Shown: one piece after another, positions 5,469-12,320 of the stretch
Layout: the number at the start of each line of letters is the position of its first letter
Position numbering within the stretch: the first letter of the stretch is position 1
Source of the DNA: a virus
Direction: 5' to 3' (one strand)
Length of the DNA: 64,000 nucleotides
Virus record (IMG/VR): IMGVR_UViG_3300042453_002354
Span: 64,001 to 128,000 of that record
Position numbers and translations under genes: made by a program
The notes under the pieces: generated by a model
Databases searched by the model: none
What the model saw: only the letters and a program-made list of their open reading frames with translations
What the model was told of the DNA's origin: nothing

Positions 5469-5476
5469 TATTTATA
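5469..5476 (-). promoter_or_regulatory. Late promoter TATAAATA (gp23)
   Basis: Exact consensus overlapping the gp22 stop. Confidence 0.8.
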
Positions 5477-6884
5477 AATTTCTTTTTTTGAAAGCATCAA
5501 TATATTGTTCGACCTCATAATTTGACTCGCCAGTTTGTTCTGTCAAGTTCATGCCACTGGTTATCATTCTTTTATTTGCAGTTTTGTTTCCACCCTTTGC
5601 AAAAAACGACTTTTTAATTGTTAGAACTTTTTCTGCAAAATCCTTTTTATTTGTAAAGGCCAAATTTTCCGTTAAGGACACTAATCTTTCGCTATCGGAA
5701 GATGTCAAACCTTCACAAGCCCTTTTGACGATTAAACTCTTTGAAGTTTCCTTTAGAGTCTTTGTCAAATGAATATTCTTTTTGGTTTGTTCATTCAGTC
5801 TATTTTCCAATTCTTTGGTTCTCTTAGTGAGACCTTTTACAAGATCTTTCTTGTTCTTTGGAACTTCAACATAATGCTTTTCAAAGAGATCTTTCATTCC
5901 GGACATAAAGTTTTCTGCTATTCTCGATTCAATTGAACGATCAACAGCTACTTTATTTTCTTTGAGCCATTCCGAAACTGCATAATCCAGATATGAAGAA
6001 AGTTTATTAACAATCCTATCTTCTTTCAACTTGCTCTGCTTTTTGTATGCAATTTTATACGCTTCTCTGATCTTTTCTCTTTCCGATGCAATTTTTTCTC
6101 TGACAACAGCTTCAAAAATTGTGGCGGTTTTTCTCTTGAATCCTTCGGAAAGTTTTTGACCCTTGAATAGAGTGTTTAGACTTTCATGCATTTCTTTCTT
6201 CTCATCTTCTTCGGAGCCATATGCTTCCTTCATTTCTTCTTCGTCTTCGTGACTAGATTCATGCATTTCTTTCTTTTCATCTTCTTCGGAGCCATATGCT
6301 TCCTTCATTTCTTCTTCGTGATCTTCTTCCTCTTCTTCTTCTTTCATTTCCTCTTCGGATTCTTCTTTTAAGGATTTGAATTTCTTATTACGCTTCTTGA
6401 TCGAGGTAAGAGCTTCGTTGACGAATTTTTCCATATCTTCTTCGTCTTCTTCCTCTTCTTCTTCTTCTTTTTCTTCTTCTTCTTTTAGTCCTGGAACTTC
6501 TGGATCGGGTAATATTTGATCACTTCCAAGATCTAAATCGGCTTCATCTCTTTCCTCTTCGCCACCAATAAGTTTTAGAAGTTCTTCATCCGGAACCTCG
6601 TCCATAAAACCCAAATCGTGTACAGGAAGTTTTTCGTTATAATCAGAATCGGAAAACTCTTCTTCTAAATCTTCTTCCTCTTCTTCGTCTTCTTCCTCTT
6701 CGGAGAGCTTATGCATCTCTTCTTCTTCATCTTCTTCTTCGGAAAGTTCATCCTTTTCCATATCTTCTTCCTCTTCCTCCATAAAAGAAGATAGTTCACC
6801 TTCAGGCACTTGTTTCTTATGGCCCAAATCATGAACTGGTAAAGAAATTGCTTCTTGTATCAGTTTGTTCAATTTGCTAGACAT
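5472..6884 (-). CDS. gp22: Prohead core scaffold protein with long acidic N-terminal extension
   Basis: C-terminal half has LSEGFK.K.ATIFEA.V, YLDY...EW..EN..A and F..G.K.LF..HY; directly upstream of gp23. Confidence 0.92.
   Translation of the reverse strand: MSSKLNKLIQEAISLPVHDLGHKKQVPEGELSSFMEEEEEDMEKDELSEEEDEEEEMHKLSEEEEDEEEEEDLEEEFSDSDYNEKLPVHDLGFMDEVPDEELLKLIGGEEERDEADLDLGSDQILPDPEVPGLKEEEEKEEEEEEEDEEDMEKFVNEALTSIKKRNKKFKSLKEESEEEMKEEEEEEDHEEEMKEAYGSEEDEKKEMHESSHEDEEEMKEAYGSEEDEKKEMHESLNTLFKGQKLSEGFKRKTATIFEAVVREKIASEREKIREAYKIAYKKQSKLKEDRIVNKLSSYLDYAVSEWLKENKVAVDRSIESRIAENFMSGMKDLFEKHYVEVPKNKKDLVKGLTKRTKELENRLNEQTKKNIHLTKTLKETSKSLIVKRACEGLTSSDSERLVSLTENLAFTNKKDFAEKVLTIKKSFFAKGGNKTANKRMITSGMNLTEQTGESNYEVEQYIDAFKKRNL
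6184..6319. repeat. Direct repeat of about 61 bp (75-nt period) in gp22
   Basis: 6184-6244 vs 6259-6319, one mismatch; each copy encodes EEEMKEAYGSEEDEKKEMHE. Confidence 0.9.
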
Positions 6885-7373: not shown

Positions 7374-8363
7374 ATGAAAAAAATACTAATAATTGCTATG
7401 TTATTAATGTGCAATCTGGCATATGCAAAACCTCAGTATAGAGGATTTATGCTAGGGGATACGAGTTTACAAAGTTTATCCGATGCTAAAGCATTGGGCG
7501 TTAATATATTCAGACATCAGATTTTCGTTTCTCATATGAATGAACAAAACAAAGAATCTGTAATGAATGATGTATTCACGGTTTTAGATCCGATAGTAAA
7601 TTTTTGTTTGACTAATAATGTTAAATTGGTAATTGATCTACATCAACCGCCTGGAGGTATGAAACAAATCTCTCACAACAGATCCGATTCGGCGCATTTT
7701 TGGGACAGGAAACTTCAAAATTTAGTTATTTTCTTTTGGAAAAGAATATCAGAAAGATATAGTAATAATTCCGTATTATATGGATATGATTTATTAAATG
7801 AACCGGCATACCGATTACAACAGTGTAAACATTGCTATACGCTGAACGGATTATATCTAAAACTAAAAAAGGAAATTCGTAAATTTGACACACAAACTGA
7901 TATAATTTTAGAACCATCATTTGGCAAAAGTTCTACTTTGAAGTTTTTAAAACCATTAAAGGATGATAGAGTAATCTATAGTATACATTGGTACTCGCCA
8001 ATGAAAATAACACATCAAACACTTTTTAATTTTTCAGAACTGATTGAATATCCAAATAAAGAATACAATAAAAATGTATTAAAATCTGAAATGAGAACGG
8101 CAATAAATTTTCAGAAAAGATATAACGCCAGAATGTATATCGGCGAGTTTAGTTGTATTAGATGGGCAAAGAATTCCTCCGCAAAATTTTATATTAGGGA
8201 TGTAATATCAATCTTTGAAAAATTAGGATGGGATTGGTCTTATCACGCTTGGCGTGAATATGATGGATGGTCGCCGGAACACAATTCTGATATGAATGAT
8301 AAAAGTTGGAAATCAACAACGCCAGTATTGGAAATACTAAAAAAGCATTTTTCGCTGAACTAA
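7374..8363 (+). CDS. Secreted glycoside hydrolase family 5 (cellulase-like)
   Basis: Signal peptide MKKILIIAMLLMCNLAYA; LVIDLHQ, GYDLLNEP (acid/base), YSIHWY, MYIGEF (nucleophile) and W.YHAW. Confidence 0.9.
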   Translation: MKKILIIAMLLMCNLAYAKPQYRGFMLGDTSLQSLSDAKALGVNIFRHQIFVSHMNEQNKESVMNDVFTVLDPIVNFCLTNNVKLVIDLHQPPGGMKQISHNRSDSAHFWDRKLQNLVIFFWKRISERYSNNSVLYGYDLLNEPAYRLQQCKHCYTLNGLYLKLKKEIRKFDTQTDIILEPSFGKSSTLKFLKPLKDDRVIYSIHWYSPMKITHQTLFNFSELIEYPNKEYNKNVLKSEMRTAINFQKRYNARMYIGEFSCIRWAKNSSAKFYIRDVISIFEKLGWDWSYHAWREYDGWSPEHNSDMNDKSWKSTTPVLEILKKHFSLN

Positions 8364-8805: not shown

Positions 8806-8864
8806 ATTATTTAATCCTTATAGAAAATTTAATAAAAAAATTGCTCAGAGAATTTCATTCTCTA

Positions 8865-8872
8865 TATTTATA
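8865..8872 (-). promoter_or_regulatory. Late promoter TATAAATA
   Basis: Exact consensus upstream of 8398..8805. Confidence 0.7.
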
Positions 8873-8886
8873 CTCAATAAAATTGA

Positions 8887-9102
8887 CTATTCCGATACCA
8901 ATTCGGCATCAACTAGAGTTTTGAATTGTTGAATGTTTACAAAAATTTTTTCTGACACTTCATTCTTAAAGTAACCTTCATTACATTCAGAACAAAAATC
9001 ACCTTCTACATTCTTAATTGTGGCAGTTTCATTTTTGTATGTATAATACAAATCTCGACAGTCACGAATTAATTCACCATTTGAACACGCAAAACATTTC
9101 AT
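8887..9102 (-). CDS. YgiT/MqsA-type zinc-finger domain protein without HTH
   Basis: MKCxxC..GEL.RD.RDL.YTYK.E...I..V.GDFCxxC.E matches the MqsA N-terminal domain; 4-nt overlap with the upstream gene. Confidence 0.85.
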   Translation of the reverse strand: MKCFACSNGELIRDCRDLYYTYKNETATIKNVEGDFCSECNEGYFKNEVSEKIFVNIQQFKTLVDAELVSE

Positions 9103-9551
9103 CTTCTGTACCTATAAACAATAAATTTGTAATTTCTCTTTTGTATTCTGACAATTTCTCTTGGTTTCACGCCATGATTTACTATCATGTGCTGACCTAT
9201 TGCTTCCTGACTCAGTATTGATGTGCCAGGTTCAATTTCCATTTGAACGGATGGAACACCAAAGAACTCCTGAGAATATATCAAATCTTTTTTACAGTCA
9301 AATAAATCATTATCGCCAAAAAAAGATTCTTCGGTTGGAATGCCAAATGCGGATATTAATTTTGGTTGTGGTATTATATCTGGGTCGCCTAGACTTTCTT
9401 CTGATTCTATTTCTAGAATTATTAGATAGGTCTCGCCACTTAAATCTAAATGTGGAAATATTGTACTATTATTAATTTCTGGAAAGACTTCAGAAACAAA
9501 CAATAGTTTAAATGAAGGTACTTGAGTTGTAGATAATATTTGTTCACTCAT
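9099..9551 (-). CDS. Hypothetical virion protein with four I-x-[ST]-x-E-x-[FLI]-G repeats
   Basis: IESEESLGDP, GIPTEESFFG, IYSQEFFGVP and SILSQEAIGQ. Confidence 0.6.
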   Translation of the reverse strand: MSEQILSTTQVPSFKLLFVSEVFPEINNSTIFPHLDLSGETYLIILEIESEESLGDPDIIPQPKLISAFGIPTEESFFGDNDLFDCKKDLIYSQEFFGVPSVQMEIEPGTSILSQEAIGQHMIVNHGVKPREIVRIQKRNYKFIVYRYRR

Positions 9552-9611
9552 CCTTCGTAATCCTCACTCAAATGCGACTTAATGATATTTATCGCATAAT
9601 ATTACATTAAA

Positions 9612-10271
9612 TTATTTTAAAGATTTTAGGAATTTTTCAAAAGCCTTTATCGCCAAATCTTCTCTAATTGATTTTTTCACTATTGGTTTTGTTATTTGTT
9701 GTTTAATTTTTTGCAATTCTCTTTCTACGATTTTGCCATTATTCCAAACCCATTCTTTTCCTTCTAGTATTCCTTCAACAAACGCATCAGGAGCACTAGG
9801 ATCTGCAACGACATCAACTGTGGCCAAATAATAATCGTCTTGAACTTCTTGTAAATTATTATCTATTTCTTTTAAACTACCCATACCACGAGAAGAGACA
9901 CCCAACTGAACTCCTTCATCAATGAAGGCTTTAACTATTTTTCCAGTTGGTGTGTCTAAAATTTTAGCTCTGCCAATAAAATTGCTACCATCTTCTCGTA
10001 TGGATGTAATCATATGAGAAACACGATCAAGATTAATCGTAGGTGTTTCAGGATGATTCAATTCGCCAAGTGCTCTGTTTTTGGATACTGCTTCTTGAAT
10101 ATATCTATTAACTTCTTTTTGAAGAACAGGATGTGGATATATCCTTCCATTCCTGTTTTCTAAATCTGCTTGGAGAAAAATACCTTCTATGAAGTAGTTT
10201 TTTCCAGGTTTATTTTCTTCCTGTAAAATTTCAACTTTTACATTTTCGTAGATTTCTCTTATGAGTTTCAT
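9612..10271 (-). CDS. gp21: Prohead core protease
   Basis: IEGIFLQA...NRNGRIYP, ALGELNHP, GVSSRGMGSL and DVVADPSAPDA. Confidence 0.97.
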   Translation of the reverse strand: MKLIREIYENVKVEILQEENKPGKNYFIEGIFLQADLENRNGRIYPHPVLQKEVNRYIQEAVSKNRALGELNHPETPTINLDRVSHMITSIREDGSNFIGRAKILDTPTGKIVKAFIDEGVQLGVSSRGMGSLKEIDNNLQEVQDDYYLATVDVVADPSAPDAFVEGILEGKEWVWNNGKIVERELQKIKQQITKPIVKKSIREDLAIKAFEKFLKSLK

Positions 10272-10559: not shown

Positions 10560-12320
10560 TCAATTCAAATCTTCTTCTAATAGTATATTTAAATCAAAAA
10601 ATTCTTTGTCTTCTTTTGGCTCACCTTTGTTGATTCTTTTGTCTCGCTTAACTTCTGCCTTTTCTTCTTTGTTTTTTAAATTTTTAGTCTTTACTTCCGT
10701 TGCGCCAGTTTCTGGTGCATCAAAATTGACAGGATCTTTTTGCTTATCCAATTCCAATTCAAATTCTGCACTAGCCATATCAATGTCAGCTCTGTCTTCC
10801 GTCTTCTCAAGATATTCATCCTTTTCGGATTTAATCTGCTTATCAATATTTTTCTGCAATTCTTCCGATTGATTCAGTATCACATCTCTTACGTATTGAT
10901 GTGAAAAATATTTACCAACGTAAGGTTCTATGGATTGCAAAACATTTAATCTGGTTAAAGTTAATTCTTGATCTTTCAGTTCGCCAAAATAATTGTCCTT
11001 TGAGTAAATAAAATAAATGTAATTTTTAATTTGCTCCCATTCTTCTGGTGATATGATATTTTTTAATATTAATTGTCTTTGTAATAATTCCATAAAAAGC
11101 TGAGAGAATTGTTGTCTCAGTCTTACTATAAATTTATAAAACTTAACCTCATCTCTGGTTATTTCTGTCACTCTGCCAACATTAAAATTATTTTGGCTAT
11201 CGAGTCTTCCTATAGGAACATTTAGAGACTGATAGAATTTTCTCTGGAAATATTCAATATCTGATATTTCTCCGAGGTTTTGACCTCCAGGCAAAGTGTC
11301 AATAGAAGATCCGGTTGAACCATCTTTGACAGCTAACCAAAAATCTTCTTGCATAGAATAGAATTGTCTATCGCTTTGAACTTCACCAGTTTCGTGATTG
11401 TATATCATATTATTTCGATATGTGTTCATCATTTGCTGAACGAACTGTACCGCTTTATTATGTGGCATACCAGCGACATCTACCTTAAAAACTCTTCTTT
11501 CTGGTGCTCTAGTTATGCGATATATGACCGATGCATCTTCCATCATTTTTAATTGGTTCAAAGGTCTCATGGCTTTGTGTAAATGTGAATACACTATATT
11601 AGCATACTTGTCGACTATTCCAGAGTGACAATAGACAACCGAATCTGGTGTGATTCTATAAGTGGCATATAAATCTGGCATATTGAAGTTAAAGAATGGT
11701 ATGGTGCTAAATTGCATACCACCTCTTAATCCCATTTGATTGAATACAAAAAATTCTTCAACGTTTTTTACTAATTCAACGCCAGTTTCCGAATCCGTTT
11801 CTCTCTCTACTTGAGTTATTTTCTTCATTTGTCTAGGATCAACGTATCTCAATTCTTTGATCCCTTCTTTTTCTTTTCCTGGTATCACGAGAGCGTGATA
11901 ATATAATCTACCATCGACATACCAAGACCTAAAGATTTTATACGCATCTTCTCTGTAATTTAATAGAGATAAACATTCTTGGAATTCGGCTGAGATTTTT
12001 TTCTTGATTGATGATGGTATATCAGATTTAAGATTGAAATCTAATTCAACGCCTGGTTCTTTACCTTCTACTGAAATGGCCTCATTTACGATATCGTCTA
12101 TCGCCGCATCACATTGTGGATGTAAAGACATTTCTCTATATCTTGTGATAAGCTCAGTCTCACTTATGGCAGCATATTGTAGACTGTCTGCCGCTTGTCG
12201 CATAAATTGATCGACGACTAAAGAACCGTCTTGTAAGTTTGGATTTACAGGACTTTTCTGTAGCTTTTTCAATTCATCTTCAGTTTTACTTTTCTTTAGT
12301 TCAAATCCAAATAGTTTCAT
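10560..12320 (-). CDS. gp20: Portal vertex protein
   Basis: LFGF, YREM..HP..D.AIDDIVNEA, WYVDGR, NQLKMMEDA.VIYRITRAPERR and TLPGGQNLGE. Confidence 0.98.
   Translation of the reverse strand: MKLFGFELKKSKTEDELKKLQKSPVNPNLQDGSLVVDQFMRQAADSLQYAAISETELITRYREMSLHPQCDAAIDDIVNEAISVEGKEPGVELDFNLKSDIPSSIKKKISAEFQECLSLLNYREDAYKIFRSWYVDGRLYYHALVIPGKEKEGIKELRYVDPRQMKKITQVERETDSETGVELVKNVEEFFVFNQMGLRGGMQFSTIPFFNFNMPDLYATYRITPDSVVYCHSGIVDKYANIVYSHLHKAMRPLNQLKMMEDASVIYRITRAPERRVFKVDVAGMPHNKAVQFVQQMMNTYRNNMIYNHETGEVQSDRQFYSMQEDFWLAVKDGSTGSSIDTLPGGQNLGEISDIEYFQRKFYQSLNVPIGRLDSQNNFNVGRVTEITRDEVKFYKFIVRLRQQFSQLFMELLQRQLILKNIISPEEWEQIKNYIYFIYSKDNYFGELKDQELTLTRLNVLQSIEPYVGKYFSHQYVRDVILNQSEELQKNIDKQIKSEKDEYLEKTEDRADIDMASAEFELELDKQKDPVNFDAPETGATEVKTKNLKNKEEKAEVKRDKRINKGEPKEDKEFFDLNILLEEDLN

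Follow-up and report, generated by a model that had tools for sequence, protein, structure and literature searches.

The 71-aa protein that we describe here, encoded by a virus of the T4-like type, is, by its sequence and its predicted structure, the N-terminal zinc domain of the antitoxin MqsA (YgiT) and nothing more. The best reading of this protein, which we hold tentatively and somewhat short of an even chance, is that of an antitoxin mimic that would disarm a host RNase of the MqsR type. Its gene was found in a window of 64,000 nucleotides (the whole stretch of DNA analyzed here), which is part of an IMG/VR virus record of 156,877 bp, ~92% complete and with a G+C content of 35%. The virus is an uncultured, freshwater and distant T4-like myovirus, lytic to judge by its T4-like gene set, and its portal shares no more than 43-45% identity with the portals of T4-like cyanophages. 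The late head operon contains the zinc-domain gene, which is placed between two late genes, 21 and 22 (Table 1), and terminase, sheath, tube and gp23 genes flank gp20, gp21 and gp22 in sister contigs.

Toxin-antitoxin systems are among the commonest defences against phages, and we know of few phage counter-measures to those of type II, whose antitoxins are usually deemed too specific and too tied to their operons to be borrowed. A phage gene with only the binding half of MqsA would represent a simple and directly testable case of such borrowing, and it suggests a rule for searching further cases, namely antitoxin domains of virulent phages that come without the DNA-binding half and without a toxin. 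Orphan antitoxins are already known from phages; a virulent phage with a type II antitoxin reduced to the binding domain would, judging by the sequence, be new, and we found no description in the literature of a phage-borne MqsA devoid of its helix-turn-helix (HTH) domain.

Table 1. Features of the window in and around the gp21-gp22 interval, in positions of the window.
Feature	Position	Strand	Remarks
Scaffold gp22	5472-6884	-	
Gp77-like fibre-tail adaptor, 118 aa	6937-7293	-	Below the Pfam cut-off; between gp21 and gp22
GH5 cellulase-family gene	7374-8363	+	Sec-type signal peptide; between the phrog_644 gene and the Gp77-like gene
phrog_644 gene, 135 aa	8398-8805	-	Between gp21 and gp22
Consensus late-promoter box TATAAATA	8865..8872	-	Just past the stop codon of the zinc-domain gene
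Stand-alone MqsA N-terminal (YgiT-type) zinc domain, 71 aa	8887..9102	-	ATG start, TAG stop
ATGA stop/start overlap of the zinc-domain gene with the 150-aa ORF	9099..9102	-	Read from the sequence
150-aa ORFan	9099..9551	-	Directly upstream of the zinc-domain gene
GATAAATA, differing at one position from the T4 late-promoter box TATAAATA	9586..9593	-	Within the 60 nt that separate gp21 from the 150-aa ORF
S77 prohead protease gp21	9612-10271	-	
Portal gp20	10560-12320	-	

The identity of the domain, proposed by a first-pass annotation from the letters of the DNA, is borne out by profiles, alignment and fold. The protein matches PF15731 (MqsA_antitoxin) with 67.9 bits (cut-off 30) and an E-value of 1.2e-18, over positions 1-69 only of the 131 of the profile, and passes TIGR03831 (YgiT_finger) with 44.6 bits against a cut-off of 20.2. 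Residues 1-70 of the Escherichia coli MqsA align with it without gaps (E 2e-10, ~30% identity), and its CxxC...CxxC cysteines are C3, C6, C37 and C40, which coincide in position with the E. coli zinc ligands (PMC2791442). In the alignment, the phage protein ends at the linker preceding the HTH of the canonical MqsA, and a purpose-built HMM finds no match in it to the C-terminal HTH of the XRE type; the model of the full-length MqsA, TIGR03830 (CxxCG_CxxCG_HTH), yields 44.1 bits, under its cut-off of 61.8. Only 81 nt separate the stop codon from the next gene, which leaves no room for a decayed HTH downstream, so that the clean loss of this domain, as first proposed, holds. Unlike the full-length MqsA, the phage protein would thus be devoid of dimerization, DNA binding and autoregulation.

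The AF2 model of the protein, based on an alignment of 143 relatives, reaches a pLDDT of 95.3. In it, two long beta strands span residues 10-22 and 25-37 and are followed by a short edge strand at ~43-45 and by a helix (47-70). Its best matches in the PDB are 3GN5, 3GA8 and 3HI2, all of them containing MqsA's N-terminal domain (TM 0.85-0.89, rmsd 1.0-1.2 Å), and a weak fold match is given by ZifS (8YOZ), a related small zinc-finger protein. The likeness to the MqsA domain of 3GA8 and 3HI2 extends from the predicted fold to the positions of the zinc ligands and to the edge strand and helix, which are the predicted toxin contact.

In agreement with the claim of the first-pass annotation that this domain binds and neutralizes MqsR, MqsA's N-terminal domain has been shown to rescue cells from the toxin by itself and to form a 1:1 complex with it (PMC2791442). 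The primary contact is the pairing of the strand S43-M45 of MqsA with the strand V22-T25 of MqsR, together with the residues P4, S50, F53, M54, K47 and R61 of the antitoxin (PMC2791442). The phage protein has G43-Y44-F45, S50, I53, F54 and K61 at contact positions, all within the range of the HTH-bearing MqsAs, where the motif EG[YIVM]F is present too; the buried ones (Y44, F45, I53 and F54) stay hydrophobic. The contact residues as a set (F4, S7, G43, Y44, F45 and N47) have diverged from MqsA and differ from those of every canonical MqsA examined. F4 is unusual, the position being occupied by a proline in 124 of the 143 relatives, and so is S7; by these two changes, P4F and H7S, the secondary contact site for MqsR is altered.

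When modeled together with the canonical MqsR of one mqsRA locus (L013), the phage protein gives a complex score of 0.68, with 0.02 for the best control, a pass that, since a like complex has been solved (3HI2), may be model memory and shows likeness only, rather than binding by the phage copy. The mark used for this score is reached by 58 of 80 solved complexes and by 2 of 110 mismatched pairs. Between runs, no fewer than 91% of the contacts are common, the partner reaches a pLDDT of at least 82, and the predicted interface is that of 3HI2: residues 42-48, 50-58 and 61 of the phage protein would face residues 20-33 of MqsR, and residues 2 and 4-7 would face residues 60-68.

Unlike the MqsR/MqsA module, the gene belongs to a lytic T4-like phage and has no mqsR upstream. 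From eight MqsR toxins we made an HMM, whose best E-value, at full sensitivity and among all the 810 ORFs of at least 40 aa in the whole ~92%-complete genome, was 0.89, and a Pfam search of the same genome for MqsR (PF15723), DUF4258, ParE/RelE and HigB was empty. In the latter search, PF15723 and PF15731 stayed below the cut-off in the E. coli control, for which reason we relied on our own HMM instead. The phage has no detectable cognate toxin, with ~8% of its genome possibly missing. The first-pass annotation had noticed no mqsR-like toxin nearby and had pointed to a toxin elsewhere in the genome as evidence against its reading; both searches leave the neighborhood and the 810 ORFs free of such a gene, and the 150-aa ORF upstream bears no likeness to MqsR when compared by hhalign (probability 0.2%).

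An exhaustive HMMER search of 1.84 billion representatives yielded 210 matches at E <= 0.001, none of them above 48% identity, comprising canonical HTH-bearing MqsAs (133-140 aa), many gene-call fragments, stand-alone forms of 62-80 aa, and two tandem forms. The 60 representatives classed as 'stand-alone' are not to be taken as a frequency, and many of the matches of 85-130 aa are fragments or frameshifted canonical MqsAs. Two 'multi-repeat' matches (P0006 and P0015) were discarded as false positives: a protein with Ig repeats in one case, a multihaem cytochrome in the other. The closest relative of all, P0007, is an HTH-less protein of 68 aa with 47% identity. RNase H and endonuclease V genes of the T4 type are present in its contig, which seems to be another T4-like phage. 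The neighborhood of P0007 is a different one, between a 572-aa ORF and a DUF1289 gene, with no toxin.

A pattern scan of IMG/VR, for which a first broad alignment was set aside as too diverse, found only the near-identical copies of the phage's own gene and 13 further loci. All 13 encode a full-length HTH-bearing MqsA of 133-140 aa and, in every IMG/VR locus among the matches listed, an mqsR of 98-100 aa lies directly upstream of mqsA. The same scan with P0007 as query found nothing. Word-indexed protein searches with the 71-aa and the 150-aa proteins returned the phage's own cluster only in each case; tblastn of the 71-aa protein and P0007 against 50,697 GenBank phage records gave nothing meaningful even at E <= 10, and the Foldseek search of the phage protein against BFVD had no match at E <= 0.001.

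Among bacteria, an HTH-less orphan of 68-71 aa occupies one chromosomal site across Massilia and Pseudoduganella (L026/L027:2501-2707), flanked by icd (isocitrate dehydrogenase) and a gene for a PEP-CTERM protein, with cspA and clpS-clpA in the vicinity. No toxin was found beside it and no MqsR is adjacent, and NCBI names it 'MqsA family antitoxin' (e.g., WP_161074881.1). It has the length and the architecture of the phage protein, likewise without HTH or adjacent toxin; what distinguishes the two is that the phage gene is viral, whereas these proteins are encoded at a conserved, housekeeping-like site of the chromosome, and that the identity between them is ~37%. In a FastTree tree of the N-terminal domain (68 columns), the phage protein and P0007 are sisters (support 0.81) and nest (0.85) with HTH-bearing MqsAs, including P0034, whose upstream gene encodes a PF15723 MqsR. 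Given this modest support over 68 columns, the tree is suggestive of a placement of both phage copies among the MqsR-paired MqsAs, not with the Massilia/Pseudoduganella orphans. The objection foreseen at first, namely that the closest homologues could be naturally HTH-less proteins with no link to MqsR, is sustained in part: P0007 is an HTH-less phage protein, and the Massilia/Pseudoduganella orphans are HTH-less and have no MqsR next to them.

Further bacterial stand-alone copies are found in mobile or defence islands, and the MqsA of Wielerella is a split pseudogene of 74 + 96 aa. The tandem proteins, P0004 and P0005, have two MqsA N-terminal domains and no HTH (147 and 149 aa, L008:222-665 and L034:4001-4450); one of the two is encoded in an island together with DndB, a type I restriction methylase and a DUF927 primase, and has no adjacent MqsR.

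Regarding the history of the phage gene, both the zinc-domain gene and the 150-aa ORF are absent from all 72 related phage loci spanning gp21-gp22, in 69 of which gp21 adjoins gp22. Judged by gp21 (61-63% identity), L037 and L039 are among the nearest relatives, and there the order is gp21, phrog_644 gene, Gp77-like gene and gp22; compared with these, the window phage adds the 150-aa ORF and the zinc-domain gene as one block after gp21, plus the GH5 gene. From this comparison, the zinc-domain gene is a recent, lineage-specific accessory gene that entered with an ORFan, and not one appended to a conserved late gene. Intact copies occur in 10 further metagenome contigs, which come from different samples (JGI, ENA and Logan); nine of these 10 span both genes, and in all nine the 150-aa ORF accompanies the zinc-domain gene. 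The 11 contigs contain three alleles, with 3-4 nucleotide differences, too close to measure selection, and the proteins differ at residues 48-49 only (E48/D48 and V49/I49). Residue 48 belongs to the segment predicted to contact the toxin (42-48 and 50-51) and residue 49 adjoins it, the changes being too few to test.

The 150-aa ORF has an acidic N-terminal part and a basic C-terminus, whose last 30 residues are invariant among variants. Its only match is a PHROG minor tail protein, a weak one (E 3e-5) that runs over the stretch of a repeated motif, I-x-[ST]-x-E-x-[FLI]-G; Pfam, NCBIfam and PADLOC yielded no family, the atlas gave no lead, and the AF2 model is uninformative (pLDDT 38.8). The motif is present in three strict copies and one near copy: IESEESLG, IPTEESFFG, IYSQEFFG and ILSQEAIG.

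The ATGA overlap suggests the translational coupling of the two genes. The first-pass annotation had described a coupling to a late gene, of which the overlap itself stands; the upstream gene, in contrast, is a co-inserted, lineage-specific ORFan. The box GATAAATA upstream of the ORFan is a possible promoter for the two-gene pair. Sigma-70-like matches upstream of the pair are at chance level, this one-mismatch late box being the sole other candidate, and no terminator-like site was found on the minus strand between gp21 and the pair. The consensus box TATAAATA serves the phrog_644 gene and indicates where, downstream, the two-gene insertion has its edge. Between this box and the phrog_644 gene there is a 7-bp hairpin, AGAGAAT-GAA-ATTCTCT (8840-8856, minus strand), with a run of T a few bases further on, which would stand at the 5' end of the late transcript of phrog_644.

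As an antitoxin mimic, the phage protein would be a zinc-bound monomer, made of the toxin-binding domain of MqsA without a DNA-binding or dimerization domain. During infection, it would bind a host RNase of the MqsR family, with the edge strand 43-45 and the helix face 50-61 extending the beta sheet of the toxin, as MqsA's N-terminal domain does in 3HI2, and the toxin would be held inactive after the loss of the host's own labile antitoxin; the gene would thereby act in counter-defence as a phage-borne orphan antitoxin. The binding of a host MqsR, the identity of the toxin, the timing of expression and the benefit to the phage are all points that we infer, and the protection of late mRNAs, which the first-pass annotation had added, is speculation.

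The MqsR/MqsA/MqsC system inhibits phage T2 (PMC10783111), in keeping with the earlier statement that systems of the MqsRA type are linked to phage defence, and orphan antitoxins are proven counter-defences in T4-like phages, as in the case of Dmd from T4 against RnlA/LsoA and of AdfN (NADAR) against DarTG1 (PMC11825919). As with Dmd and AdfN, the antitoxin half is here encoded by a virulent T4-like phage with the toxin undetected in a ~92%-complete genome, the activity being, in our case, predicted. Contrary to AdfN, which is an enzyme reversing the modification made by the toxin, the phage protein would be the binding domain of a type II antitoxin. Dmd is not known to be homologous to the host antitoxin. 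A further difference from both is that the genomic position of the zinc-domain gene suggests late, not early, expression.

Precisely this position weakens the mimic reading. Dmd, the anti-toxin-antitoxin factor of T4, is made early, whereas the zinc-domain gene sits in the late head operon and has no recognizable promoter of its own, from which its timing is deduced; such a location would be unusual for a counter-defence gene that needs to act early. The reading is also weakened by the usual specificity of type II antitoxins for their cognate toxin, taken together with the diverged contact residues, by the toxin-less and HTH-less orphans of Massilia/Pseudoduganella, which indicate that the domain can have another role, and by the coupling and co-insertion with the 150-aa ORF, perhaps the real partner.

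Alternatively, the zinc ribbon plus helix could have been reused as a fold that binds another host or phage protein, or a nucleic acid, with no link to a toxin of the MqsR type, which we consider rather unlikely. The conserved chromosomal site of the Massilia/Pseudoduganella orphans without a toxin and the tandem two-domain forms P0004 and P0005 speak for such a reuse, as do the altered secondary contact site (P4F and H7S) and the location of the gene among structural genes, whereas the primary contact surface retains the character of the family, the nearest HTH-bearing relative (P0034) is paired with MqsR, and the complex with MqsR passes its controls in prediction, with the caveat of model memory. 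Less likely still, the domain could partner the co-inserted 150-aa ORF, whose product it would bind, neutralize or chaperone, in which case a phage would have put the MqsA fold to a new use. The ATGA overlap fits such a pairing, and the gene order, with the large gene first, the zinc-domain gene second and 4 nt of overlap between them, mimics mqsR-mqsA, where the toxin gene also comes first (PMC6918082). The two genes are, besides, always together (in nine of the 10 other contigs, those spanning both) and constitute a single insertion after gp21 and before the phrog_644 gene, neither of them being present in L037 and L039. Against these signs, the ORF has no similarity to MqsR or to any Pfam or PADLOC family, its only match is the weak one to a tail protein, its model is uninformative, and P0007 is flanked by other genes, which indicates that the domain does not need this neighbor.

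Finally, the gene could be a functionless leftover, that is, a fragment of an mqsRA module that the phage acquired and has yet to lose. Bacteria are known to have split or truncated MqsA genes, such as that of Wielerella, and the sequenced relatives of the phage gene are too close for selection to be measured in them; even so, this explanation is very improbable. The ORF is intact and keeps the four zinc ligands and a confident fold, its end coincides exactly with a domain boundary, and 10 contigs, sampled independently, retain it. Moreover, the HTH-less P0007 is kept in a different phage, and its divergence to 47% identity with the fold preserved argues for selection.

The mimic reading could be taken further. 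T4-like lytic phages may, on repeated occasions, have retained only the toxin-binding domain of a type II antitoxin which, freed from operator binding and dimerization, would work as a general sponge for RNases of the MqsR family, with the variable residues 48-49, at the edge of the contact, tracking the toxin variants of the hosts; this would be the first phage-borne counter-defence by a protein antitoxin derived from a type II system. We regard this extension as possible, if doubtful.

The interval that received the two genes has other particularities. The phrog_644 gene and the Gp77-like gene between gp21 and gp22 are common only to the closest relatives, L037 and L039. The GH5 gene, on the opposite strand within the head-gene cluster, is without a match in all 72 related gp21-gp22 loci, among them L037 and L039. 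At the end of the interval, the N-terminal half of gp22 (~230 aa) is very long, extremely rich in Glu and internally repeated, and precedes the conserved T4_CASP domain.
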